From Clostridia bacterium (GTDB taxonomy: Bacteria; Bacillota; Clostridia; Oscillospirales; CAG-272), in assembly GCA_017613355.1 (NCBI GenBank), contig JAGAEA010000047.1:4393-68392 (forward strand): a stretch of 64,000 bases of DNA, given 5' to 3'. Shown in pieces: positions 575-21,780 of the stretch. Numbering within the stretch: position 1 is the stretch's first letter; each line of letters begins with the position of its first letter. Below the pieces are notes generated by a model. That model had not been told where the DNA came from. It did not search any database and worked only from the letters and a program-made list of their open reading frames with translations. Made by a program: the position numbers and the translations under genes.

Positions 575-2962
575 TTAGAAGAGGGCTTGGTTTGGAGATC
601 TTCCACAACACTTTTTATATTTCTTCCCGCTACCGCATGGGCACAATTCATTTCGCCCAATTTTGTTTCCGTTCGAAGCGATGTATCGTTGTAATCGATC
701 GCTTGCAAGTCTCTCTCCTTGAATTCTTAATTCTTCCCAACGATCCGTTGGAATATCTTTTTTAGAATAGAAGCAAATCGAAACCCCTTTAATTTCTCGA
801 AAATCATCTAAATCAAGGTTGATTTGTGTACGATTTTCATCACTGTTCAAAATCATATTTGAAAGGACATAATCTTTTTGGGTCTCTTCGGTAGGACTTG
901 GAACACCAGGCTGAGAAATAAAACAAGAGTATCTTAAATCGCTTTCCTCTTTTCCAATTGAACTGATTGTTCTTGTCTGACCCGTCGTTTTTTGATACGT
1001 AAAAACTTGCTCTATTTGATTGGACAACTGTTTTTTTGCCTCTGACGAAAAGTCCAAGAAATAATTTGATATTTGCACTTTATTATCATAATTAGACTTA
1101 TCTAAAAAAGCGATAATCTTTTCGAAAAGCCCCGGGATTGCTTGCTGAGGTTTTACAGGATTTAGTTGGGGATGATAAATTTGTGTAAAGTAATTATCTA
1201 ACTCTTCTCTAAATCCAATCGGATTTGTTCTGCCCCGACTCATGCCCGAGAAATACATTGCATAACAATTATGCTTAATGTACATTCCCAAGTGGTCTAA
1301 CTCGTCCGTCGGAACAAGATTTCGCAATAAAGTAGCCGCTCTTCGGTTCTTCAAAAAGTGCAAAAACTTCGAGGGGGAATCAAAATAAGACTGGTATACC
1401 ATCAAATCGTCAATCGCTATACTTATCGCACTGCAATTTGCTTTTATAAAGCTTAGTTTTTCAGCTCTTGCAGCAAAAACATTTATGTTGTCTACGGTGA
1501 CTGAAAGCAAATATATATCGTTAATTTTTGACATATCAATGCAATCTTTTTCGGTTTTATCTTCATTGTATAATTGGGCATTATCTTTTGAAGACAAATA
1601 ATCAAAAGTTCGTTGACATTGATTCTCCGATTCTTCAATCAACTTTTTATACGATTCGATGTGATGATCAAAGTCAAAAATCGGTGGAGTATAAACAAAG
1701 GTTCCTGCTTTGATTTCAACAACCATTAAACAATCGTAATATTGTATTATTAGATCGTTTTCGCACATCTGCTTTAAAGACTTATTTCTGGGATAATAAT
1801 TATTTTTATAAATTGAACATCCGGGAAGTAGCTTTTGAAAAACATCTGCTACCATGGATTCGCTCGCCTGTTGTTGGATTGAACTCCAATTATAATCAGG
1901 ATTTTTATTTAAAATCATCTTTTGAATTGCTCTGTAAAAATTATCTGCGAAGGAATAATAATCAAAGCAATAATATTGATCTTCAATTCCGATAAAAGGC
2001 TTTTTTTGTATGGGCAAATTTATAATTGGCCATCCAGAATATTCTTTGTCAGCAAAAAAGTCCGTGCACTCGCCCAAGCCAAAAGAAAGCTCTTTAACGA
2101 ATTCTTTTGACCACCCTGTTATGTCGCAAACATCATTTAGCCCAACGCCAAAAAAATCTTGAGCAAGTTTTTGCCCTGTTTCTATTTGGGCGCTCATAAC
2201 CTGTTCAATATCCTTTTGATCAATATCTTTCAAGGCATCAAACATATTCATAAGCCCATTCATGGGATCCATTCTTCCCTGCGAGAGAGCATATTGCAAT
2301 TTGCCTATCCCTTCAATAATGTCGTTGCTTGACATGTTGAATAATTTCAGAAAAATATCATTGTGAGGCATAAGTAAATATCTATAGTAATCTAACTCAA
2401 ACACCTGATATCTATGCCCTCTAACCAAATATGCCGCTTGTGCCTCAAATATCTCTTGCAACAATTCCTCGTTTATGTTATGGGATTTTTTATAAGCAGC
2501 GAAAAAAGCAATGTAATACTGGTGAACTAATTGATATAATTGTTCAATATCAGCACTAATTTCAAAGAACAATTCTGAAGGGTCTTCGATGGCTTCTGGT
2601 TGCCTTTTTTCGCATGAAACATAAACGCTTTGAATGTATTCAACTGAACGACCAACTGCAATATTGTCAAGTCCTTGAAGTTGAAATTCTGAAGTCGTTC
2701 CTAAAAGTGATTGAAGAAAAGTTAACTGAACATAGTTTAACAATTGCAACGGATCACATTTAAGAATGTTATCACGTATCTTTAAGATTAAAGAATCCAT
2801 TTCAGACTTTAATTCTGGTTCTTGCTTTGAAAGTTCATCCATAAGTTTTGAATGATCATTTTGTGACAGGACGTTGTGCAAAAAGATATTTTGTCCTATT
2901 TGCTCCATCTCCACAATACCATTATTAAAATAGTTTTTTGCTTTTTCCGTTTTGGGCTTCAA
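575..2962 (-). CDS. Uncharacterised 795-aa protein: PD-(D/E)xK/NERD-like nuclease core plus C-terminal SEC-C zinc-binding motif
   Basis: Long uninterrupted ORF starting 54 nt downstream of res on the same strand, with no intervening hairpin. CPCGSGKKYKKCCG lies at the C-terminus (nt 605-643). E368 ... ENDLIIQYYDCLMVVEIKAG (D403, E416, K418; nt 1709-1861) fits E...D...ExK. The start is TTG at 2962 with a distant GGAG; the next in-frame ATG is codon 19. Confidence 0.75.
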   Translation of the reverse strand: MKPKTEKAKNYFNNGIVEMEQIGQNIFLHNVLSQNDHSKLMDELSKQEPELKSEMDSLILKIRDNILKCDPLQLLNYVQLTFLQSLLGTTSEFQLQGLDNIAVGRSVEYIQSVYVSCEKRQPEAIEDPSELFFEISADIEQLYQLVHQYYIAFFAAYKKSHNINEELLQEIFEAQAAYLVRGHRYQVFELDYYRYLLMPHNDIFLKLFNMSSNDIIEGIGKLQYALSQGRMDPMNGLMNMFDALKDIDQKDIEQVMSAQIETGQKLAQDFFGVGLNDVCDITGWSKEFVKELSFGLGECTDFFADKEYSGWPIINLPIQKKPFIGIEDQYYCFDYYSFADNFYRAIQKMILNKNPDYNWSSIQQQASESMVADVFQKLLPGCSIYKNNYYPRNKSLKQMCENDLIIQYYDCLMVVEIKAGTFVYTPPIFDFDHHIESYKKLIEESENQCQRTFDYLSSKDNAQLYNEDKTEKDCIDMSKINDIYLLSVTVDNINVFAARAEKLSFIKANCSAISIAIDDLMVYQSYFDSPSKFLHFLKNRRAATLLRNLVPTDELDHLGMYIKHNCYAMYFSGMSRGRTNPIGFREELDNYFTQIYHPQLNPVKPQQAIPGLFEKIIAFLDKSNYDNKVQISNYFLDFSSEAKKQLSNQIEQVFTYQKTTGQTRTISSIGKEESDLRYSCFISQPGVPSPTEETQKDYVLSNMILNSDENRTQINLDLDDFREIKGVSICFYSKKDIPTDRWEELRIQGERLASDRLQRYIASNGNKIGRNELCPCGSGKKYKKCCGRSPNQALF

Positions 2963-3016: not shown

Positions 3017-5668
3017 TTACTTCCCCTCAAACCTCTCCGCCAGTTGCTTAAAGGACGAATTCGGCTGAATTTGCCCCGCGGGGATGAAGAGATATCGCCA
3101 TTCCTTATAGCCGTTGGCTTTGCCCCAACGGGAAGCGACGGCACAATACTGAATTCCGCGCTCTTTCTTGGCAAGAACATCCGGGTCATTGAGTTTGTCC
3201 TCTCCCTTGACTTCCACCAAGTAAATGATATTTTCGGTTTCCACCACAAAATCCGGCTCGTAGATGTGTCCGTGATTGTAGGTGATATTGAATTCTTGCG
3301 GATGCGGACGCAACCAGTTGACCACGTCGGGATCGGATTCCAGCACGCGCGCGAGCGTCAGTTCGCCCTCCTTGCTGTCAAATTTGGCAGTGCTGAAAAC
3401 ACCTTTCCGAATTCCCGTAAACAGAACGCTTCTGATATCTTCCGTAAACGACTCGTAAAGGCCAGCCGATTCTCTATAGTTGTAGGTTTGTTGGAGATTA
3501 TAATCCCTCGTTCCGATCACTTCTTCCTGCAAAAATCCGTTTTTACAATAGAAGTGCCGGAGCATTTGAGCATACAATTTGTTGCCGATATCGCGCTTAT
3601 ACATCATAACAATGTTGCGCATCCCATTCTCGCCGTTTGCGGCAGTGTAGTGATCGCAAAGCTGCGTGATGAGTTTGAACAACAGCGCGGAACACTTCTC
3701 ATAGTCGATTTCCGGCTTTTTACGAAGCTCGTCCAAAATCACCTTTTTGGGATTGTAGCCTTCAAAGTCAATGGCGTCACCTTTGATGCGCTGACGGTCA
3801 CTCATATCCTCAAGATTCTGGATCAACAATTCATTGCGAATCGGCACGTGATTGAAGTCGGCAAAATCAAGATCGAAATCCACAAAAACATATTCTTCCA
3901 CGCCGGCATCGGTGATTTTGATGCGCGGAATCGGGATGAATTTTTCTTTGGCGGCAATGTAGGTTTGCTCGGTTTCGTGCAACATCCATGAAGCCAAAGG
4001 CATTTCATTTTCGCGGAAAGTATCGCCAAGGTCCTGATCTTCCGAAATCTGCTTTGCAACCGACTCTGCAATTCTTTTTGCCGTCTGCTGTGTAACCGTA
4101 TGGCTTGGTTCGCTCTGAATACTCTGCAAAACTTCATTTTGAAGCAGTGTTTTGGTTTTTTCAAAAACTGCGTCGGTCTTTTCCGTGCGTTCCAGTTGCG
4201 TAAAGGAATACGCTTCCTCGTGTGTTTCGGTTGACGGGATATCAAACGACAACTGCGTGGTGGTGATTTGTTCCGGCACGAGTTCCTCTGCTTTGATGAC
4301 GTTCCCGGCTTTGAAGATAGAGTCGCCGCGTTGCGCTTCAGCGAGAATATCGTTGAATTTGTCGTGCGCTGTCAGCATGACAGCATCAACGTCGCGGTCG
4401 CCGGTGCGTTCTCCGTAAGGTAAACGCAAACCGCGCCCCACCATCTGCTCGCGCAGAATTTTCGATGCGGCGGTGCGAAGAGGGACAATGGTATAAAGAT
4501 TGTTGACGTCCCAACCCTCTTTGAGCATATTGACGTGAATAACGATCTCAACCGGGTTTTCCGGGTCTTCCACTTCCAACAAAAGCCGTGTGTTTGCCTC
4601 GGTCTCGGCGCCGGTTTGTTTGGAGTGAACGATGATCGTCTTATTTTTATATGCCCCGTCACGGAATTCATCGGAGCGAACAAATTGATCCACCCATTGT
4701 GCGTGTTCAGTGTCTTTGCAAACCACCATCATAAACGGTTTGACAACCGGCTTGCCCGGATGATTGCCGGCATATACCTTTAACTTTTGTTTTGTGGTTT
4801 CATGGCACAAAATGCCGTCCAAAAGCATGAGCTTGTCCAGTTGCTCGTCGCCGAAATTATAAAAATCAATATCCGATCGGGTAACGGCAAACGGAGTACG
4901 GGTATAGCCGTCTTCAATCGCTTTGGAGAGCGGATATTCATAGACAACGTTTTTGAACGGAACCTGCTTGCTTCCTTTGGTAACGAGCGGCGTTGCCGTT
5001 AATTCCAGCCCCAAAAGAGGATGCAGTTCATTCAGAGCCGCCGCTCCTCTTTCTGCCCGATAGTGGTGCGATTCATCCATGATCAGCACAAGGTCGGGCA
5101 AGGCAGAAAGATACTGATAAAAGGAGTCGCCGATAATTTCGTTGACCTTTTTCATGTTGGCATCTTCTTTATTGAACTTGTCAATGTTATAAACAAAGAT
5201 GCGGATATCCGATTCAAAGGCAGAAATCTGCCGCGATTTATAATCGTCGTCAGTAATAATCTGCGGAGGCGCGCTGAAACAACCGAGTCCACGGAACACA
5301 TACTTTTGGCTGGTCATATCGGAAAGATCCCGCTTCAGCTTTTCGTATATGGTCGTATTCGGCGCAACGACAAAATAGTTTTTAATATTGTGTTGCGTGT
5401 ATAAATACGCGATAAAAGCGCCCATCAATCTGGTTTTGCCAACGCCGGTGGCAAGGGCAAAGGTCAGCGACATAAACTCCCGCTCAAAATCGGAGCAAAT
5501 CGGATACAGTGCATGAACCGCACCGAGCGCGCCGCGCAGGTTCATTCCTTTTTTGAGGGAAACGCTGTTCAAAATCTCTTCCAAAATCTTCAGAGACTTT
5601 TCCTGCGGCTTGCGGAGTGACATAACGCCGGTGATGTAATCGGTGGTGTATTGCGGGAAATTACTCAT
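3017..5668 (-). CDS. res: Type III restriction endonuclease, Res subunit (helicase-nuclease)
   Basis: Walker A LATGVGKT, DEAH-like LIMDESHHY, and a helicase C region (LKEGWDVNNLYTIVPLR, QMVGRGLRLPYG). C-terminal nuclease motif YEPDFVVETENIIYLVEVKGE. The ATG at 5668 overlaps the mod stop (ATGAGTAA). Confidence 0.9.
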   Translation of the reverse strand: MSNFPQYTTDYITGVMSLRKPQEKSLKILEEILNSVSLKKGMNLRGALGAVHALYPICSDFEREFMSLTFALATGVGKTRLMGAFIAYLYTQHNIKNYFVVAPNTTIYEKLKRDLSDMTSQKYVFRGLGCFSAPPQIITDDDYKSRQISAFESDIRIFVYNIDKFNKEDANMKKVNEIIGDSFYQYLSALPDLVLIMDESHHYRAERGAAALNELHPLLGLELTATPLVTKGSKQVPFKNVVYEYPLSKAIEDGYTRTPFAVTRSDIDFYNFGDEQLDKLMLLDGILCHETTKQKLKVYAGNHPGKPVVKPFMMVVCKDTEHAQWVDQFVRSDEFRDGAYKNKTIIVHSKQTGAETEANTRLLLEVEDPENPVEIVIHVNMLKEGWDVNNLYTIVPLRTAASKILREQMVGRGLRLPYGERTGDRDVDAVMLTAHDKFNDILAEAQRGDSIFKAGNVIKAEELVPEQITTTQLSFDIPSTETHEEAYSFTQLERTEKTDAVFEKTKTLLQNEVLQSIQSEPSHTVTQQTAKRIAESVAKQISEDQDLGDTFRENEMPLASWMLHETEQTYIAAKEKFIPIPRIKITDAGVEEYVFVDFDLDFADFNHVPIRNELLIQNLEDMSDRQRIKGDAIDFEGYNPKKVILDELRKKPEIDYEKCSALLFKLITQLCDHYTAANGENGMRNIVMMYKRDIGNKLYAQMLRHFYCKNGFLQEEVIGTRDYNLQQTYNYRESAGLYESFTEDIRSVLFTGIRKGVFSTAKFDSKEGELTLARVLESDPDVVNWLRPHPQEFNITYNHGHIYEPDFVVETENIIYLVEVKGEDKLNDPDVLAKKERGIQYCAVASRWGKANGYKEWRYLFIPAGQIQPNSSFKQLAERFEGK

Positions 5669-7241
5669 CGCATTCTTCCTCCTCGTCGTCATATACCGGT
5701 GGATGGACAATGTTCAGATTATAATTCTCTTTTCCAAATTCACAACGGTCAAGTAGCATTTGCGGGATCTTTTTGATGGTGATGTTGCTATACGCCTTTT
5801 CCAAGCCGGCATCGTAGGAACGGCAGGCAATGATCAGATACTCGCCTTCTTCCATCGTATCGCGGATGGAATCCAGGAAGGTGCTGTTCAAGTGCCGCGT
5901 CGTCACAAAAAGATAGCTCTTTTCGTTTCCAACTGACTGCTTCCAAAACAGGTTGCCGTCGGGTTGATAGGTAAAGCCCTCGTGCAATGCCATTGCCGCC
6001 GCAAGCATATCCGCATCGTAATCGGGATTGATCACATATTCGCCAAACGGATCTTGGTTGATGAGCGTTGGGGCAAGCTCATAAAAGCGGTAGCCACCGC
6101 CGCTTTCCCACTTCACAGATTTTGTGATACCGCCCTGATCTTCGCCGGAAATAACTTTATCCAAGCGCACTTTACAGTGTGTATAAGCGTGGTCGCCCAT
6201 TTCAATGCCAATATACCGTCTGCCCATCTTGTGGGCGACGGCGGCAGTTGTTCCGGAACCGAGGAAAGAGTCGAGGACAAGATCGTTAGGTTGCGTTGCT
6301 AATATCATTATTCTTTCAAGAAGGCGTTCTGGTTTCGGTGTTGAAAAAACGTCATCACTATTGAGTTGTTTCGCTTCTGTTTTTGCCTCTTGGTTATCGC
6401 CGACTTCATCTCGAAACCAAAGAGTTGTTGGCACAAGACCGTCTTTAACCTCTGAAAGGAATTTTTTGTAACGAGGAACATTTTTTCCATTTTTTCCGAA
6501 CCATATCCGATTATCTTTCTCCATTTGTTCCAGACTTTCATGAGAAAAGGCGGCGAATCTGCCAGCTGGTGGAGTCCAGACAACACCATTCGAGAAAACA
6601 TGGGTAAAATTGGGATCGGTACCGCTTCTTGCTTGCAACGGGAGAGATTGCCACGGTCCACGTGGATCATTATCAGGGTTTGAATATCCTTTTTCACTTT
6701 CTGGTGTGCGCGGAAGGAGATAAGGATGCCACATTTCTTTTGACTTTGCATAAACAAGGATAAAATCATGATTATCGGAAAACCATTTCGCGTCATTTGC
6801 ACGCGTATGCTTTTTATGCCAAATAACTGTAGCAATAAAATTGCTACGGCCAAAAACCTCATCGCAGAGGACTTTTAAATAGTGACCTTCATCATCATCT
6901 ATACTAATCCAAATACTACCATCAATTGTCAGTAAATGTTTCAGCAATTCAAGACGAGGTCTCATCAGATTTAGCCACTCGCTGTGCTCTAAATTATCAT
7001 CGTAATGCTCAAAAGCTGCGCCGGTATTATACGGCGGATCAATATAGATACATTTCACCTGACCGGCATACTTGCTCTCCAACGCTTTTAGCGCCAAAAG
7101 GTTGTCCCCGTGGATCAACATATTTTCGGTATCAGGATCGTTGGCACAGTTCGACAGAGCCGCATTCTCAATCAAGAGTCTCGGCTCAACCACAATCGGC
7201 TCGTCTTTTCCGTACCAAGTCAATTCCAATTTGTTTGGCAT
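5661..7241 (-). CDS. mod: Type III R-M Mod subunit, N6-adenine/N4-cytosine-class DNA methyltransferase
   Basis: IYIDPPYNTG (motif IV) precedes FLGSGTTAAVAHKMGRRYIGIE (motif I), which is the beta-class order. GGAGG RBS. 8-nt overlap with res. Confidence 0.9.
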   Translation of the reverse strand: MPNKLELTWYGKDEPIVVEPRLLIENAALSNCANDPDTENMLIHGDNLLALKALESKYAGQVKCIYIDPPYNTGAAFEHYDDNLEHSEWLNLMRPRLELLKHLLTIDGSIWISIDDDEGHYLKVLCDEVFGRSNFIATVIWHKKHTRANDAKWFSDNHDFILVYAKSKEMWHPYLLPRTPESEKGYSNPDNDPRGPWQSLPLQARSGTDPNFTHVFSNGVVWTPPAGRFAAFSHESLEQMEKDNRIWFGKNGKNVPRYKKFLSEVKDGLVPTTLWFRDEVGDNQEAKTEAKQLNSDDVFSTPKPERLLERIMILATQPNDLVLDSFLGSGTTAAVAHKMGRRYIGIEMGDHAYTHCKVRLDKVISGEDQGGITKSVKWESGGGYRFYELAPTLINQDPFGEYVINPDYDADMLAAAMALHEGFTYQPDGNLFWKQSVGNEKSYLFVTTRHLNSTFLDSIRDTMEEGEYLIIACRSYDAGLEKAYSNITIKKIPQMLLDRCEFGKENYNLNIVHPPVYDDEEEECDE

Positions 7242-7274: not shown

Positions 7275-8561
7275 TTACAGGGAATATCGTGTGTTTCTCG
7301 CCGTTCCGTGGCGCTTGATCAGCCCTTTTTGAACCATATTCGTTAGAATCCTTGTTGCCGTCGGCGCAGAAACTTTTAAGAATGCTTCAACATCCGATCT
7401 GCCAACCTCTTCCTGCTGCCGAATATAATCCAAGACAAGCGCTTCACGCTCATCCGATTCCATTTTTTCAACCGTCGTCAAAGTTGTTTTGGGAAGCGTC
7501 ACCTTAAAGGCGTTTGAAGAACATTCAAAAATCGGTTGCTTTTTGAATCCCTCATAGGATTTTTTGATTTTTGAAATGCCGGTTCCGTACGCTTCAATGA
7601 AATGCAAACGATAGAAAATCTCTGCCAAGCGCCGATTGCGAAGATAGGAAACGCCCATCATAATATCATTCATCTCCACACCGCGCATCAGTCCGCCAAG
7701 CGATACGATTTCCATGCGATCGTCAAATACGCTGACCAGCGTGTAGCCGCCCAATCCATAATCTCTGTGAATAAACGCATTCAAAACCGCTTCGCGGATT
7801 GCCTCAACAGGATAATCTCTGACATCCTTGCGCTTGATGTTTTCAATTTTTGGGCTGCTTAACGTGTTGTATTTATCCAGCATTTTCAAAAGATCGTCTA
7901 ACTGCCGGAACAAGGAACCCGAAAACTCGTGGCGATCCTTGAAAACTTCCTTTTCTGTTCCTTCAAACACGGCAAATTTGATTTTGTGTTCGCATTGATC
8001 GGAAAGAAGCAAGCCGAGATTGGTGTAGCAATCGTCTCTTCCGATCACACCGAGCGACCGCTTTTGCGATTCCGCAAACGAAAGCCCGGCATTGGTAAAT
8101 TCTTCTTCCGCCTGGAAAAAGGTTAGGTTTTGATTCAACGAGCGGGTTTCTTCAAAAGAATCCCCGGTCGTTTCTTTGATCATAGAGAGAATCGCCGTTT
8201 CGGTCGCCGGAACCGAGGCGGTACCGTGCCGGACATAAACACCTTCAGGCCGGATTCCTTTGGAGGCCAGGTAATACGGCGACATACTGCCCCGATTGAC
8301 GGTGATTTTTAAGACCTCTTTGTTCTCCATTGAAATACGCTCATACTTAATAAACATGGAAATATCCGGTTTAACGGTATCGGCTAAATGGCTGACACAT
8401 TGAAGCTCAACCGATTGAATATCGGAAAGCCCAACGACCTTGCCGTCGTCATCAATTCCGATCAAAATCTCGCCGCCGTTGGTGTTGGCAAAAGCGATGA
8501 CTTCCTTGTTCAAATCGTTTACAAATTGCCTTTTGAATTCCATCGTTTCAGACTCTTTCAT
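7275..8561 (-). CDS. AlbA_2 (Schlafen-like) domain / ATPase-like / C-terminal winged-HTH protein, putative regulator or defence-associated ATPase
   Basis: N-terminus ESETMEFKRQF...VIAFANTNGGEILIGIDDDG is typical of the AlbA_2 'divergent AAA/RecG-like' family. The C-terminus LVLDYIRQQEEVGRSDVEAFLKVSAPTATRILTNMVQKGLIKRHG looks like a wHTH. The ATG at 8561 is preceded by GGAGG; the track's TTG at 8573 is less likely. Confidence 0.7.
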   Translation of the reverse strand: MKESETMEFKRQFVNDLNKEVIAFANTNGGEILIGIDDDGKVVGLSDIQSVELQCVSHLADTVKPDISMFIKYERISMENKEVLKITVNRGSMSPYYLASKGIRPEGVYVRHGTASVPATETAILSMIKETTGDSFEETRSLNQNLTFFQAEEEFTNAGLSFAESQKRSLGVIGRDDCYTNLGLLLSDQCEHKIKFAVFEGTEKEVFKDRHEFSGSLFRQLDDLLKMLDKYNTLSSPKIENIKRKDVRDYPVEAIREAVLNAFIHRDYGLGGYTLVSVFDDRMEIVSLGGLMRGVEMNDIMMGVSYLRNRRLAEIFYRLHFIEAYGTGISKIKKSYEGFKKQPIFECSSNAFKVTLPKTTLTTVEKMESDEREALVLDYIRQQEEVGRSDVEAFLKVSAPTATRILTNMVQKGLIKRHGTARNTRYSL

Positions 8562-8596
8562 TTGAACCTCCAAACATTTATCGAATCAATTCGCTT

Positions 8597-8623
8597 TATG
8601 ATTTGATTATATATGATTTGATT
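8597..8623. repeat. Two 12-nt direct repeats TATGATTTGATT (8597-8608, 8612-8623) overlapping the -10 and spacer; candidate operator
   Basis: Exact 12/12 repeat at a 15-nt period, followed by a partial third copy cgatttg. Confidence 0.5.
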
Positions 8624-8634
8624 CGATTTGTCAA
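8606..8634 (-). promoter_or_regulatory. Consensus promoter for the AlbA_2-mod-res-SEC-C cluster
   Basis: The minus strand reads ttgaca aatcgaatcaaatcata tataat. The -35 is at 8629-8634, the -10 at 8606-8611, with a 17-nt spacer. Confidence 0.6.
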
Positions 8635-8749
8635 TAGGATTCTCAAATTTCCTATTATAAAATTAATCCTGTGGCATTGATATTGTTTTTATTGGTGTTT
8701 GCTTTTTATAGTAGATTACATTGGCTTTTGAATAATCATCGGGATGAAA

Positions 8750-8787
8750 TATAAAAAGCAGGGACTTGAAACAATCCAAGTCCCTGC
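8750..8787 (-). terminator. Orphan rho-independent terminator oriented for the minus strand
   Basis: gcagggacttg (8758-8768) pairs with caagtccctgc (8777-8787), 11 bp perfect. On the minus strand it is followed by UUUUUAUAUUU. No annotated minus-strand gene lies upstream of it. Confidence 0.5.
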
Positions 8788-8972
8788 TTGTTAACCGTTT
8801 GAAAGTGCAAATTCTTATTTGATTTTATTTTTTCAAAAAATCCCTATGGGACTTGCGCTTTGTCAAGCTTTTTTGCTTTGTTTTCGAAACAAGTTTGCGC
8901 GTAAATGTTGGTTAAACAGATGGAAAAATGTATTGCTCCGTTTTTGCGTGTTGCCAGTTAACTAGCGGTGTA

Positions 8973-9001
8973 TTGACAATTTGCCCCTCATATGGTATAA
9001 T
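8973..9001 (+). promoter_or_regulatory. Consensus promoter (TTGACA-17-TGgTATAAT) for the protease cassette
   Basis: ttgaca atttgcccctcatatgg tataat. The -35 is at 8973-8978 and the -10 at 8996-9001. Confidence 0.65.
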
Positions 9002-9033
9002 ATTATTATATTTGAATGAGGGAGGGGAAAATT

Positions 9034-10017
9034 GTGGCAAATTTTACAAAGATTCAATCTCAGTATGACAATGATTGCAACAATCTTATTAGTGCTTTTT
9101 TTGCAACTAATAAGAACTCTGATCCTAACTACATTAACCAAGAAATAAATAAAATTCGAGCGACTACAATCAGTAAATTAAGAACAACTTACGTTTCTGA
9201 ATTATCCAAATATACTGGTAGAAACACCATTGTTTATTATTCCACATTTCTTCAAGGGAATATGATGTCAACCAACCCAGAATTGATGATTAACGACAAC
9301 GATATGAATGGGTTGATGAATGCAGTGAGTGGATTAGACAAGAAAAAAGGACTAGACTTAATTTTACACACTCCGGGTGGTATAACAACCGCAACTGAAG
9401 CAATTGTAAAGTATTTGCGCAAATGTTTCAATAGCGATATTCGCGTTATCGTCCCTCATCTGGCTATGTCTGCAGGCACAATGATCGCTTGCTCTGCAAA
9501 AGAAATCATTATGGGAAAAGAATCTAGTTTAGGGCCAATAGATCCTCAATATCGCAATGTCCCGGCGGAGGGCGTTATTGACGAATTCAATAGGGCTGTA
9601 AAAGAAATTCAAGCCGCCCCTCAAAAAGCGCTTGTTTGGAAAGAAATTATCTCTCAATATAGGCCTACATTTTTAGGCGAATGCCAATATGCAATTGATC
9701 TTTCAAGAAACTTGGTTACGGAATGGTTGTCTACTTGTATGTTTAAAAGCAACAAGAAGCGAGAAGCAAAGGTTGGCTGCATAGTAAATGGTTTAGCGTC
9801 TCATTCTTCATCAAAAATGCATGATAAGCATTACGATTTTGAAGATTGTAAAAAAATAGGTTTAAAAGTTATTGCATTAGAAAAAGATTCTAATCTTCAA
9901 GACCTTGTTCTTTCCATTCATCATTCATATGTATTAAGTTCTTATGTTTTGCCTGGAACGTTAAAATACATAGAAAACAATAATGTGCAAACATTTGTTA
10001 TTTCTGGAAACAAATAA
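9034..10017 (+). CDS. SDH-family / SppA-ClpP-fold serine protease
   Basis: LILHTPGGITTATEAIVKYLR...VIVPHLAMSAGTMIACSAKEIIMGKESSLGPIDPQ is the Clp/SppA-fold signature, with the nucleophile Ser in AMSAGT. The GTG at 9034 sits 6 nt after GGGAGGGG. The ORF-track ATG at 9016 lies inside the RBS. Confidence 0.75.
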   Translation: MANFTKIQSQYDNDCNNLISAFFATNKNSDPNYINQEINKIRATTISKLRTTYVSELSKYTGRNTIVYYSTFLQGNMMSTNPELMINDNDMNGLMNAVSGLDKKKGLDLILHTPGGITTATEAIVKYLRKCFNSDIRVIVPHLAMSAGTMIACSAKEIIMGKESSLGPIDPQYRNVPAEGVIDEFNRAVKEIQAAPQKALVWKEIISQYRPTFLGECQYAIDLSRNLVTEWLSTCMFKSNKKREAKVGCIVNGLASHSSSKMHDKHYDFEDCKKIGLKVIALEKDSNLQDLVLSIHHSYVLSSYVLPGTLKYIENNNVQTFVISGNK

Positions 10018-10028
10018 GGTGGTTTTGT

Positions 10029-10223
10029 ATGAATAATTTAGATAAGAATATTGAAATAGCTTTAAATGCCGGCCTGTTTTCTCAACCTGAAAATGAGACC
10101 GCAAATGAAAATATAATTTTTGACACTTATGGGAATTATTGCTTCCCGACAGATTTTTCAAGCAATGAGAAAAATTCGATTCTTTCTGTTTCACAAGTAA
10201 CTATTCCTGCGGTTTCAAAATAG
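10029..10223 (+). CDS. Small acidic hypothetical protein (64 aa) co-transcribed with the protease
   Basis: ATG lies 11 nt after the protease stop, with an AAGGTGG RBS. No TM segment and no recognisable motif. The terminator follows. Confidence 0.45.
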   Translation: MNNLDKNIEIALNAGLFSQPENETANENIIFDTYGNYCFPTDFSSNEKNSILSVSQVTIPAVSK

Positions 10224-10283
10224 TTTTGTTATTTAAACTCAACAACGAGTTCAATGAGAGCATCACTCGTCCCGCCATAAAAG

Positions 10284-10319
10284 AAACCTCTTTTGTCGTG
10301 GTAGACAAAAGAGGTTTTT
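10284..10319 (+). terminator. Rho-independent terminator of the protease cassette
   Basis: aaacctcttttgtc / gacaaaagaggttt stem with a 6-nt loop, then a T-run. Confidence 0.75.
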
Positions 10320-10363
10320 CCTTGCATTTTGGGCAAAAATCGGGCAAATATAGGCAAAATTTG

Positions 10364-10405
10364 GCTTTCGGACGGTGGATCATCCGTCCGAAAGCCCGAT
10401 TTTTT
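10364..10405. terminator. Second hairpin/terminator at the island-core junction
   Basis: gctttcggacgg (10364-10375) pairs with ccgtccgaaagc (10384-10395), 12 bp perfect, followed by ccgattttttc. Confidence 0.5.
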
Positions 10406-10608
10406 CATTTCAGGACGCGAAAACAGTCAAAAAATGCTGTACTGCCCGCCACCGATTTGTCGAGGAACGCTTCTACAACGCACCAATCAACCGTTCGTTG
10501 AAAAAATCTACCGTTTTTCAACAGCGCGGTTATTGTATTGCGGCAGGAGAAGTGTTATAATAAACGCAGAACAAGCGCTTGTTACTTTCATTTTCGAGGG
10601 AGAAAACT

Positions 10609-11679
10609 ATGAACATTTTATTGAGTGTGCAATTAAAAAAACTCCGCAAGGAAAGAGGCAATACGCAGGAGGATCTTGCGAACTATCTCGGCATTTCCAC
10701 GCAGGCAGTTTCCAAATGGGAGCGTGATGAAGGATACCCGGATATCACGCTCCTCCCGGCGATCGCGTCCTATTACAACATCAGTGTGGACGATCTACTC
10801 GGCGTGGGTGAAATCGAGAAAGAGAAAAAGTTGCTTGCATACCGTGAAAAAAACAATGAACTGTTTCGCGACGGAAAAAACTCAGATCGGGTGGTGCTAT
10901 GGAGAGAAGCCCAAAAGGAGTTCCCGAACGATCTGTCCGTGCTTTACGATCTGATGTACGCTTTGTCCGCGGCGGATCAAAACGCAAACGCTGACGAGAT
11001 CATTGCTTGCGGAGAGAGGATATTAGATGAATCCACGGATCAATCTTTGCGCGGCGGCGCGGTCCAATGCTTATGCTTCACCTATTACTATGCCAAAAAG
11101 GATGCGGAGTCGGCAAAGAAATACGCAAATATGGCGGACGGTTATTCGGTCACGGTCGATGAAATGATGCCGCGCATTCTGGAAGGAGAGGAAGCGGTCC
11201 GATATTGTCAGTTCAACATACAACATCTTTTTGATATGGTCGGATTGAACGTGCGTATCATGTGTCAAAAGGGCGATTATTCGCCGGAGGAGCATATCAA
11301 AGCGCGCGAATTTCTTATTCATTGCTTCGATCTGCTTTATCCGGACGGAAACTGCGGTTTTTATCACTGCCGATATTCGGAGATCTATCGGGAAATGGCG
11401 GCAAACTATTTAAAGCTTAACGACGCGGTAAATATGTTTAAGTATCTTGAAAAATCTGCTGAGCACGCGATCAGGTATGATACGCTGAAGGATGGACAGT
11501 TCACTTCTTTCTTCGTAAGTCGGATCGATTTTTCTTCCATACATGCGGTCAAGGATTATACTGAAAATCAATCGGGTTTGCTTTTGAAATCCTTGAAAGG
11601 AGAGAAGTTCAAACAGTTTGAAAAGGATCTCCGCATGGCGAAGATCGTTAATATGCTGACACCCGTGGCGATTTTCTGA
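10609..11679 (+). CDS. XRE-family HTH plus TPR-like domain regulator (RRNPP-like architecture)
   Basis: N-terminal [60 protein letters not shown], then a ~280-aa helical repeat-like region. GAGGGAG RBS before the ATG at 10609. Promoter TTGTAT-17-TGtTATAAT at 10533-10561. Confidence 0.8.
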
Positions 11680-11706
11680 CTTTCCCGTAATCTCCGTTTT
11701 CAAGTG

Positions 11707-11739
11707 GGCAAAAGGGCGTGCACCGTGCGCCCTTTTGCC
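11707..11739 (+). terminator. Terminator after the HTH-TPR gene
   Basis: ggcaaaagggcg / cgcccttttgcc stem with a 9-nt loop. Confidence 0.6.
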
Positions 11740-11842
11740 TCATTCGTCATAAACAAAGATACGCCGCGGGGGAAGGATCTGACGGCATGTATCATTATGG
11801 CGCTTTTAGTTGGGTTTATGTATCATTACGGCGGTCTTTCAC

Positions 11843-11885
11843 AACAAAAGCGCGTCTTTTGTTTATCAAAAGACGCGCTTTTGTT
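11843..11885. terminator. 18-bp perfect hairpin, terminator of the ABC remnant (bidirectional shape)
   Basis: aacaaaagcgcgtctttt (11843-11860) pairs with aaaagacgcgcttttgtt (11868-11885). Confidence 0.7.
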
Positions 11886-11895
11886 GGTTCTCCGT

Positions 11896-12291
11896 TCAGA
11901 GGACTTTGCTCAAAAAATCCTTGGTTCGGGGGTTCTTCGGGTTGCCGAAAAGTTCCTCGGGCGTTCCTTCCTCGGCAATTCCGCCGTCCGCCATGAACAG
12001 CACTCTGTCCGCAACTTCTCTCGCAAACCCCATTTCGTGGGTCACAATGACCATTGTCATTCCCTCTTTGGCAAGTTGCCGGATCAAATCCAACACTTCT
12101 CCCACCATTTCGGGATCGAGCGCCGACGTCGGTTCGTCGAACAGAATGACCTTGGGGTTCATTGCCAACGCACGAACGATCGCAATTCTTTGCTTCTGTC
12201 CGCCCGAAAGCGTCTGCTTTCGGGGGCTTTTGTCGTTTGCTGTCAAAATTGTAAACAATCTGCGAACGCGCAACATATTTTCCGCTCGGGC
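11896..12291 (-). pseudogene. 5'-truncated polar-amino-acid ABC transporter ATP-binding gene (GlnQ-like C-terminal half only)
   Basis: [104 protein letters not shown] carries the signature, Walker B and H-loop. No Walker A/N-terminal half is present; the upstream part of the ORF is unrelated sequence. Confidence 0.7.
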
Positions 12292-12364
12292 AACATTTAT
12301 ATATGGTGAGCAAACTTTCCCCGTTTGTTTATACATTCGGAACCCTTTGGAGGATATACGGAAA

Positions 12365-12589
12365 ATGGGATCGGCACAATACCGTTTGGCAGAGGAAACG
12401 GTCAAGTTGGAAGGAAATGATTGCAAGACATTCGGGATCATTGTCGAACAGGAAAAGAAGGAGGTTGCTTGGATCCATGACGTTTCCTGCGTTCGTGAAC
12501 GGATCGAATTACTGGTGAACCGCTGCAATCGTCTGCAACCGGACCCACTGCATCTTTTTGACGTGATTGAGGATTTCCTGATGGAATAA
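12365..12589 (+). CDS. Small hypothetical protein (74 aa)
   Basis: The ATG at 12365 is preceded by GGAGG. A strong GC hairpin terminator follows. The rest of the 259-aa track ORF upstream is antisense to the ABC remnant. Confidence 0.5.
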
Positions 12590-13991: not shown

Positions 13992-14504
13992 TCACAAATT
14001 ATGATTGGACAGACCCGGAAATCGCTTTGCGATCTTTTCCCGGATCCTATGCAATCGCAAACGGAGCGCGTTGACCGATACACCCATCATTTCCGAAATT
14101 TCCGAATAGGAGCGCCTATCAACCACAAGTCGGTGAAACAAAAGCCTTTCTTCCATTGAAAGGTTTTGTTCAATTTCAAAAATGTATTTATGATAACGAT
14201 CCAACGACTCCGAAGGCTCGTCCTCTGCGGGAAGTTTTTCCAAAAGCGTTTCTTCCATCGGAGCGGAAAGCTTTTTGCGGGTATAATTCCTTACAAAATT
14301 TCGCGCGACTTGGTGTAGCCATCCCAAAACGGCACTGTCGGAAGCAAAGTCGAGCCTCTCCCATTGTGTCATCAAAAGATAGAAAACATCGCTCGTAATG
14401 TCGTCCGCACCATGGAGATCGTTGTTCATCATGTGCAGGCAGAAGCGACGAATCGGTTCGTAAAATTGCGTGCAAAGGTCATTTAAGTATTGCGGGTCGT
14501 TCAT
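13992..14504 (-). CDS. Sigma-70 family (ECF-like) RNA polymerase sigma factor
   Basis: Region 2-like DDITSDVFYLLMTQWERL...WLHQVARNFVRNY and region 4 HTH RSYSEISEMMGVSVNALRLRLHRIREKI. Confidence 0.8.
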   Translation of the reverse strand: MNDPQYLNDLCTQFYEPIRRFCLHMMNNDLHGADDITSDVFYLLMTQWERLDFASDSAVLGWLHQVARNFVRNYTRKKLSAPMEETLLEKLPAEDEPSESLDRYHKYIFEIEQNLSMEERLLFHRLVVDRRSYSEISEMMGVSVNALRLRLHRIREKIAKRFPGLSNHNL

Positions 14505-14885
14505 TCATTTGGCATCCTTTTTCCGAAGCAGGAGTTCGCAGAACATTCTGGAAAGGTTGATCAGGGTCGTTCGATCCTTCGGTTCCAGTTGAACAAGCAT
14601 ATCATTCAATTCCGGGATTTTGAGGGTTTCGTCATAGCGGGTGCATCCGAACAGGAATTCGTCCACGGACATATCAAGAATTTTGACGAGGCGAAAGAAG
14701 TTCTGCGAAGAGGGAAAATTGATGCCTCTTTCCATGCAGCTGATGGATTTTGTGGTAATTTCAAGAATGTCGGCGACTTGTTGCTGAGTCAGTTTCTTTG
14801 CCTTTCTGCAGTTTCGGATATAATTTCCGAATGCCTGCATTTCTGCGTTGGGTTCCACGGGGTCATATGCGGCGATCGTTTTCAT
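14505..14885 (-). CDS. XRE-family HTH transcriptional regulator
   Basis: IRNCRKAKKLTQQQVADILEITTKSISCMERGINFPSSQNFFRLVKILDMSVDEFLFG. Its stop codon abuts the sigma start (TGAATG). Extended -10 TGaTATAAT at 14919-14927 (minus strand). Confidence 0.8.
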   Translation of the reverse strand: MKTIAAYDPVEPNAEMQAFGNYIRNCRKAKKLTQQQVADILEITTKSISCMERGINFPSSQNFFRLVKILDMSVDEFLFGCTRYDETLKIPELNDMLVQLEPKDRTTLINLSRMFCELLLRKKDAK

Positions 14886-15106: not shown

Positions 15107-15135
15107 TTGACAAAAACAAACAATTCGGCTATAAT
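15107..15135 (+). promoter_or_regulatory. Consensus promoter upstream of the MFS transporter, followed by a ~100-nt leader
   Basis: ttgaca aaaacaaacaattcggc tataat. Confidence 0.55.
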
Positions 15136-18376: not shown

Positions 18377-18405
18377 TTGACAAAGTGGGGAAATGGGTTT
18401 ATAAT
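18377..18405 (+). promoter_or_regulatory. Consensus promoter of cysK
   Basis: ttgaca aagtggggaaatgggtt tataat. Confidence 0.55.
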
Positions 18406-21751: not shown

Positions 21752-21780
21752 TTGACAGAAGGTTGGAAACATGGTATAAT
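21752..21780 (+). promoter_or_regulatory. Consensus promoter of the rpsF-ssb-rpsR operon, followed by an ~85-nt hairpin-containing leader
   Basis: ttgaca gaaggttggaaacatgg tataat. Leader hairpins acgggc-aaa-gcccgt and ccgcgc...gcgcgg. Confidence 0.6.

Follow-up and report, generated by a model that had tools for sequence, protein, structure and literature searches.

A mobile two-gene cassette of an SDH-family serine protease and a small acidic partner in a Clostridia genomic island, probably a rearranged variant of a catalogued anti-phage system

A 64,000-nucleotide stretch of the genome of a Clostridia bacterium (contig JAGAEA010000047.1, positions 4,393 to 68,392; the whole stretch is here called the window) carries at positions 8973-10319 a compact cassette of two genes, the first encoding a ClpP/SppA-fold serine protease of the SDH family and the second a small acidic protein of 64 aa. 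It can be taken as nearly certain that this pair is a conserved mobile two-gene module. The explanation preferred here, and held to be probable, is an anti-phage cassette of the 'small hypothetical protein + SDH protease' type that is complete in itself and spreads by horizontal transfer; an anti-phage function as such is considered likely, the phenotype of this particular clade being inferred. That the small protein serves as a gate or adaptor of the protease is offered as a tentative idea. The locus represents an inverted-order, sequence-divergent, Firmicute-clade variant of a catalogued type of cassette, and because systems of this type already appear among the listed defence systems, the finding is an extension and not the discovery of a new kind. 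The signals and genes of the cassette are as follows (positions of the window; locus handles such as L012 and protein handles such as P0001 are those of this analysis).

8973-9001, plus strand: consensus sigma-A/sigma-70 promoter, TTGACA-17-TGgTATAAT with an extended -10 region (score 12/12 plus TG)
9020-9027, plus strand: ribosome binding site (RBS) of the protease gene, GGGAGGGG, read from the sequence, 6 nt before the GTG start
9034-10017, plus strand: PF01972 (SDH) ClpP/SppA-fold serine protease, 327 aa (Pfam, PHROG, alignment and AlphaFold2)
10016-10022, plus strand: RBS of the small gene, AAGGTGG, read from the sequence, overlapping the protease stop codon
10029-10223, plus strand: small partner gene, 64 aa (open reading frame, Ka/Ks and homologue family)
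10282-10319, scored on both strands: hairpin terminator with a 16-bp stem that closes the cassette (terminator scan)
10363-10396, plus strand: second, GC-richer intrinsic terminator with a 13-bp stem, 9 GC pairs and a T-run (terminator scan)

The original prediction had described a consensus promoter, a Clp-fold protease with three signature motifs, an 11-nt gap, an AAGGTGG RBS, a 64-aa acidic open reading frame (ORF) and a terminator, and all of these parts were found as described. The promoter boxes are located at 8973-8978 (TTGACA) and 8996-9001 (TATAAT). The window contains six perfect TTGACA-N17-TATAAT sites (510-538 and 8606-8634 on the minus strand; 8973-9001, 15107-15135, 18377-18405 and 21752-21780 on the plus strand), whereas 0 were expected from 100 shuffles; the organism therefore uses consensus promoters and the promoter of the cassette is no chance match. 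This promoter is not kept in the nearest relatives, with which homology begins at 9035. The protease starts with the GTG at 9034 and its 327-aa product is 100% identical to a database protein from a Clostridia metagenome-assembled genome (P0001); translation is unlikely to begin at the in-frame ATG at 9016. The stop codon at 10015-10017 is separated by 11 nt from the ATG of the small gene at 10029. Read from the perfect consensus promoter to the terminator, the cassette is predicted to be transcribed on its own, and the second terminator at 10363-10396 is a backstop before the next gene that lies outside of the conserved unit.

DNA similarity to the nearest relatives, L012 and L013 (78%), is limited to positions 9035-10281 and the flanks are unrelated; on the left side the homology sets in with the start codon of the protease gene, and on the right side it stops at 10281-10282, which is the start of the terminator stem. 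Since homology is confined to the two ORFs, the two genes are the unit that moves. Among the 130 nearest neighbour genes of 38 loci (L012-L049) no Pfam family was found more than twice, and the pair is therefore not accompanied by a conserved third component.

The assignment of the protease to Pfam family PF01972 (SDH_protease) was obtained with E = 3.8e-25 and 88.9 bits, compared to a gathering cut-off of 31.3, and phrog_11747, a phage family of unknown function, matched the protein over its full length (4e-87). The oxyanion motif HTPGG is encoded at 9367-9381 with His112 at 9367-9369, the motif AMSAGT contains Ser146 at 9469-9471, and GPIDPQ is present as the third motif. Alignment of 30 diverse homologues showed that Ser146, Gly115 and Gly116 are invariant and that Asp170, His263 and His266, all of which are present in the window protein, are conserved to at least 90%. 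A catalytic serine in an (A/S)MS(A/G)G motif, HTPGG, and conserved aspartate and histidine residues in the order Ser-Asp-His, which mark members of the family, were thus all found, and Ser146 is identified from the alignment as the nucleophile. With the NCBIfam equivalog model NF047768 (Clp_like_SDH), whose name the E. coli homologues bear in RefSeq, the window protease reached 102.3 bits and remained under the cut-off of 250, which marks the window's clade as a divergent subfamily.

The AlphaFold2 model of the protease has a mean predicted local distance difference test score (pLDDT) of 94.2 and a predicted template modelling score (pTM) of 0.91 and shows a ClpP/crotonase fold. The nearest solved folds in Foldseek were SppA (4kwb and 3rst, from B. 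subtilis) and then ClpP, with TM-scores of about 0.5-0.6, and the structure search returned no solved structure from the protease's own family. The protease lacks the membrane anchor or signal peptide of SppA and NfeD as well as any transmembrane segment (maximum Kyte-Doolittle hydropathy over 19 residues of 1.34), and it is predicted to be cytoplasmic, soluble and basic, with an isoelectric point (pI) of 8.7. The best viral structural matches (BFVD) were 'serine dehydrogenase proteinase' proteins of giant viruses and not prohead proteases. Giant viruses with such proteins include Hyperionvirus, Klosneuvirus, Mimivirus LCMiAC01, Marseillevirus LCMAC101, Harvfovirus and others, and several paralogues are present in some of their genomes, e.g., in that of Hyperionvirus.

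The small protein is acidic (pI 4.1, net charge -5.5) and hydropathy analysis revealed neither a signal peptide nor a membrane-spanning hydrophobic segment. It consists of an N-terminal helix (residues 3-13), an FDxYGNY core and a tail rich in Ser, Thr and Asn. A profile search of 5.8 billion proteins yielded a family of 57 clusters, all with lengths of 55-106 aa, in which seven positions are invariant across 51 sequences; the FDxYGNY core is invariant and is part of the near-invariant motif FDxYGNYxFPTD. No Pfam match was obtained for the small protein and no Pfam domain for any of the 57 clusters. The ratio of nonsynonymous to synonymous substitution rates (Ka/Ks) against L012 and L013 is 0.09-0.12 for the small ORF and 0.06-0.07 for the protease, and by this measure the small ORF is a real gene under purifying selection. 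AlphaFold2 modelled the small protein alone as one short helix and otherwise coil (pLDDT 72.9, pTM 0.30), and the partner is accordingly predicted to be mostly disordered on its own.

The conservation and synteny of the small ORF were the first points that a neighbourhood check had been proposed to settle, and both were borne out. In all relatives of the protease at close or intermediate distance (55-84% identity), an ORF of about 60-80 aa follows directly downstream (64-71 aa if counted from the aligned start), and these ORFs share the FDxYGNYxFPTD core. For three small proteins of the family the genomic positions were looked up, and each is located just downstream of an SDH protease gene. 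In every context read an SDH protease gene adjoins the small gene; in L108 that gene is truncated. L108 (5707-6001) is a natural variant in which, compared to L109 (4710-5722), about 1 kb of the protease gene is missing and the 3' end of this gene remains together with the intact small ORF; because the small ORF is kept while this portion of the protease is gone, the cassette appears to be decaying from the protease side.

The protease family had been described in the original prediction as being without an assigned cellular role, which is out of date. DefenseFinder lists a system named FS_HP_SDH_sah, and this name, which alone was confirmed, appears as that of a gene model in a paper of 2026 (PMC13532340). 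It is read here as hypothetical protein (HP) plus SDH_sah protein. SDH_sah is presumably the old Pfam identifier of PF01972, and in that sense the SDH_sah component is present in the window. The system reportedly has its origin in Fillol-Salom et al. 2022 (Cell 185:3248), in which accessory genes of phage-inducible chromosomal islands are said to have been tested for phage resistance. Within the literature searched, no mechanistic study of an HP + SDH system was found.

Identity between the window protease and an SDH protein of an E. coli Nissle prophage is 43% (E = 8e-85), and the latter protein is preceded by an HP of 68 aa. The E. coli prophage cassettes, in which a small HP is followed by the SDH protease, fit the description of FS_HP_SDH_sah. 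The window shares with this system the PF01972 protease, a small unannotated protein of about 60-70 aa, the two-gene organization and the location on mobile elements. However, the window differs in several respects: the protease comes first whereas in the E. coli cassettes the HP comes first, the partner belongs to another sequence cluster with the FDxYGNYxFPTD core, the N-terminal helical hairpin of the protease carries an insertion of about 30 residues, the protease is placed under the NCBIfam equivalog cut-off, and the hosts of the window type are Clostridia and Bacilli.

E. coli homologues were detected in 80 of 5426 complete genomes. The five E. coli contexts inspected were all moron sites of lambdoid prophages; in some the gene follows the Q antiterminator, in the others it is flanked by the lysis genes and the terminase gene. 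L093 and L094 have an annotated ORF of 68-69 aa upstream of it. In L092 (NZ_CP025916.1) an ORF of 66 aa that is unannotated in RefSeq lies upstream of the SDH proteinase (8622-8822); it is homologous to the 69-aa hypothetical protein of L093 (8607-8816), and both end with QLY(T/S)Y. The HP + SDH cassette of L094 (7605-8723) is located just after the Q antiterminator in a prophage of E. coli Nissle 1917. Both cassettes that were scanned, those of L092 and L094, are closed by a terminator of their own, and in L094 a terminator and a promoter-like site are found upstream as well. A separate prohead protease, S49 or ClpP-like, is encoded in L092 and L096, the two prophages with a head module in the examined stretch.

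PADLOC-DB 2.0.0 gave no match for the window pair, nor for the E. coli SDH and HP proteins used as control; as PADLOC holds no model for the family, its negative result on the window pair is uninformative. An annotation gap exists for a Firmicute clade with inverted gene order and an unrecognisable partner that is absent from PADLOC, and this clade is probably under-called by DefenseFinder. The Tai systems, which belong to the same field of research, were also considered and are unrelated, as they contain no protease.

In order to follow the partner across the family, small same-strand ORFs were scanned on both protease flanks in 94 loci and subsequently clustered; partner counts were taken over 80 genome loci with a minimum ORF length of 35 aa. 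Small ORFs that cluster by BLASTP were found in 41 of the 80 loci, and hidden Markov models (HMMs) of the clusters added 15 loci and about four plausible ones, so that a partner was found in 56-60 loci overall, usually upstream of the protease. About ten upstream partner clusters were obtained, with gaps to the protease start of -19 to +20 nt, and their loci belong to Proteobacteria, Planctomycetota, Bacteroidota, Chloroflexota, Spirochaetota and two archaea (L071 and L088). Most clusters have an N-terminal [FY]xx[FL]x[IL]..(D/E) motif that is followed by a polar tail rich in Ser, Thr and Asn, and profile comparison joined several of them with probabilities of 24-90%. In two database proteins (P0250 and P0201) a small partner of the upstream type is fused in frame to the N-terminus of an SDH protease; both records are C-terminally truncated, and a sequencing or gene-calling artefact is possible.

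In the protease tree, the loci with downstream partners of the window type form one clade, whose sister is L017. The small ORF of L017 is located upstream and bears the window-type core FLDSLGNYIFVTE; it matched the window-type profile with an HMM E-value of 5e-5 and in hhalign with 51% (E = 1.6e-4). The partner would thus have moved downstream once in the window's clade, with L017 bridging both arrangements. Partners of another sequence type are also located downstream in L023 and L085.

A conserved 'DAKLV' C-terminus of one partner cluster was considered as a signal and rejected, as it corresponds to the conserved MPNW start of the protease read in an overlapping frame. The AKLV end is common to the small ORFs of L019, L061, L067 and L073, with the D preceding it in L067 and L073; because these ends are encoded by the overlapping protease start, their conservation provides no independent evidence on the partner.

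Regarding genomic context, the window shows a GC content of 33-49% over 1-15 kb compared to 50-61% over the rest. A Type III restriction-modification (R-M) Mod/Res pair (3017-7241, minus strand) lies in this region, with one gene (AlbA_2/HATPase_c_4, 7275-8573) between it and the cassette, and the cassette had been rightly placed in an AT-rich island beside R-M genes. The island genes scanned also bore out the statement that the pair is not accompanied by phage capsid, portal or scaffold genes, as none of these turned up there. Same-type pairs elsewhere directly follow a 5-methylcytosine methyltransferase gene and RE_NgoBV (L008) or an N6/N4 methyltransferase gene and RE_MjaI (L102-106), and these two Type II R-M operons are unrelated to each other. 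Another same-type pair is located inside an integrase-relaxase element together with GmrSD, WYL and an AlbA_2/HATPase_c_4 gene (L097-101), and a further one directly follows an integrase gene beside a Fic gene (L107-110). The family is therefore found beside defence genes, as had been expected, in the qualitative sense that R-M systems, GmrSD, integrases, relaxases and prophage moron sites recur as its surroundings.

Five of the seven phage records are Porphyromonas prophages in which the gene stands between structural genes beside HicAB, and in Gordonia phage BeeGee it stands between tail genes and the integrase gene. Phage copies are mostly at accessory positions outside of head modules. A main occurrence of homologues in prophage head-morphogenesis modules, named beforehand as a finding that would speak against a defence role, was not seen; only in the Porphyromonas prophages does the gene lie between structural genes.

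On these grounds the following mechanism is proposed for the preferred anti-phage reading. The partner would bind the protease in a stoichiometric complex and act as gate, pseudo-substrate or specificity adaptor, so that without infection the protease would stay latent or undirected. A cue from the phage would displace, consume or engage the partner, and the protease might then cut one or more phage or host targets and stop phage production; the outcome could be abortive infection, or phage maturation could be blocked directly. The toxin/antitoxin-like or abortive-infection logic put forward from the sequence earlier stays an inference within this scheme, as do the physical complex, the direction of regulation and the targets. 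Tight or translational coupling, a disordered partner, its position on either side, the fusions and the lack of a third gene suggest that the two proteins act as one complex; likewise, a partner that is common and variable, has a helix + tail layout and can be fused points to direct contact between protease and peptide.

Precedents for a peptide in such a protease come from NfeD/STOPP (PH1510), which is associated with stomatin, and from SppA, all of them self-compartmentalising serine proteases of the ClpP clan. These enzymes share with the window protease the ClpP/crotonase core and a serine nucleophile after a G-G oxyanion motif, and the sequence and fold matches are weak but significant. 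PH1510 (NfeD) cleaves the product of its operon partner. In the SppA entry 4kwb the active sites are occupied by SppA's own C-termini. By analogy, the occupation of the window protease by a peptide is plausible, and a partner acting as gate, pseudo-substrate or adaptor is favoured. In contrast to these enzymes, the window protease has no membrane anchor and a different C-terminal helical domain (with His263 and His266), the TM-score is only about 0.5, and the pairs of the window type are mobile defence cargo whereas the NfeD and SppA genes belong to housekeeping operons. Immune modules in which a protease cleaves or releases a partner are also known, namely bacterial gasdermin with its protease, CalpL-CalpT-CalpS, and Lit with the Gol peptide. 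In each of them a protease acting on a small or partner protein turns infection sensing into an effector response; however, the protease folds are caspase-like, Lon-like and of the zinc metalloprotease type, the partners are non-homologous, and the likeness is one of logic alone.

Several observations weigh against the anti-phage reading or against parts of it. Some contexts are housekeeping or uninformative, such as polA (L012), a glycosyltransferase gene (L014) and a candidate PDC-M36A gene. The association with defence genes is qualitative, comprising about ten distinct contexts, and not statistical; the pooled PADLOC and Pfam scans of the 130 neighbour genes are too aggregated to quantify an enrichment. 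No convincing partner ORF of at least 35 aa was found in 20-24 of the 80 loci. Compared directly, the profiles of the window's small protein and of the E. coli partner cluster show no similarity (hhalign 0.4%), the best probability between the window-type partner and the upstream-type partners is 5% and gives no direct link, and the connection of the window partner to the upstream types hangs on the single bridging locus L017. The pairing of an acidic partner with a basic protease, which holds for 7 of 7 pairs within the window's clade, was rejected as a general sign of interaction because it fails outside of this clade.

The rival that survives best, although it is judged improbable, is an addiction module like toxin-antitoxin (TA) systems without a dedicated anti-phage role, in which a labile small antitoxin restrains a protease toxin and the pair stabilises the islands, prophages and mobilisable elements in which it resides. 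A compact operon of two tightly coupled or overlapping genes, an acidic small partner that is disordered like many antitoxins, and a location that is always on mobile or variable DNA are features shared with Type II TA systems, and HicAB adjoins the gene in the Porphyromonas phages. Against it, the small protein has neither a Pfam match nor a detected DNA-binding domain, its model consists of one short helix, and the cassettes lie directly after R-M operons in three unrelated cases, which fits defence islands better than addiction alone. The intact small gene of L108 after the 1-kb deletion is consistent with the toxin having been lost first, without being proof of it. Moreover, many TA modules are themselves defence systems, and this rival thus overlaps with the preferred anti-phage reading.

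There is little to favour, although somewhat more than a bare chance, a function that serves the element itself, either by counter-defence processing of immune or regulatory proteins of the host or by tuning the life cycle of the prophage or island. Phages and prophages carry the family, which has its own PHROG (phrog_11747), the E. coli gene directly follows the Q antiterminator or precedes the terminase gene, and many SDH paralogues exist in giant viruses. However, terminators of its own shield the cassette from late phage transcription in both E. coli prophages that were scanned, an own promoter or promoter-like site (window and L094) completes a pattern typical of morons expressed in the lysogen, the cassette also occurs in R-M islands of the chromosome that lack phage genes in the vicinity, and DefenseFinder lists the family as a defence system.

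The maturation of a peptide, in which the small ORF would be a signalling-peptide or bacteriocin-like precursor cut by its dedicated protease, is very unlikely. A small ORF with a conserved core motif and variable flanks adjoining a protease gene would suit it, but signal peptides and transmembrane segments are absent from both proteins, no conserved exporter, modification enzyme or receptor is nearby (neighbour families occur at most twice among 130 genes), and the partner is sometimes fused to the protease; this reading was rejected on context. A remnant or orphan phage prohead protease followed by a chance or decayed ORF, to which weak partial matches with PHROG 53, 94 and 1684 (1e-7 to 1e-4) and NCBIfam Clp_rel_HeadMat (8.5e-8) could point, was likewise rejected on context and is regarded as already refuted, its probability being close to nil: those matches span only the Clp core (about 70 residues) and are far below the full-length family match, the scanned island genes include no portal, capsid or scaffold gene, a prohead protease of the S49 or ClpP-like kind is encoded separately in the two gene-bearing E. 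coli prophages whose head module was covered, SDH proteins of giant viruses rather than prohead proteases gave the best viral structural matches, and the small ORF is under purifying selection.

A wider form of the anti-phage reading is speculative and rather unlikely to hold as a whole. According to it, the small partners would constitute one fast-diverging superfamily of disordered bait or gate peptides, each with an N-terminal docking helix and a variable polar tail, which would sit in a self-compartmentalising SDH protease; immunity would be triggered when phage factors displace or consume the peptide. If true, such protease-based sensing would be a principle for which no precedent has been characterised, spread over bacteria and archaea and possibly echoed in giant viruses, and the clade of the window would represent a rearranged form that is probably missed by present defence-finders.

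The remaining features of the island are the following.

575-2962, minus strand: protein of 795 aa with a C-terminal SEC-C metal-binding motif as its only Pfam match (domain scan)
7275-8573, minus strand: Schlafen AlbA_2 + HATPase_c_4 + winged-helix protein of 432 aa (domain scan)
10579-12309, plus strand: protein of 366 aa with an N-terminal HTH_3 domain and weak RmrA-like and spr1629-like matches, followed 25 nt later by an ORF of 201 aa that matches no family
13992-14504, minus strand: sigma-70-like gene, near the GC boundary
14505-14885, minus strand: helix-turn-helix (HTH) gene, near the GC boundary

The gene for the 795-aa SEC-C protein lies in the stretch of lowest GC content (33-35%), immediately beside the Res gene of the Type III pair, and is possibly a further defence gene. 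The AlbA_2 gene has its own perfect 12/12 promoter (8634-8606, minus strand), which is divergent from that of the cassette. Its protein gave partial matches to the pAgo-associated and PDC-S50 models of PADLOC, and a gene of the same architecture is found near a same-type cassette in an unrelated element (L100, 9352-10674). The HTH_3 gene and the 201-aa ORF may form a separate regulator/effector pair; a frame that overlaps this region (11810-12589) matches DUF6514.

No tRNA gene was found anywhere in the 64-kb window, and the island may extend past its left end. Sigma-70 r4 regulators comparable to the sigma-70-like gene accompany the cassette in the integrase-bearing elements L107-L110. Additionally, radical-SAM genes occur within a few kb of the cassette, namely in L005 (2438-3816, minus strand), where the gene is paired with an RNase_T/DEDDh gene, and downstream of the pair in L102 and L106.

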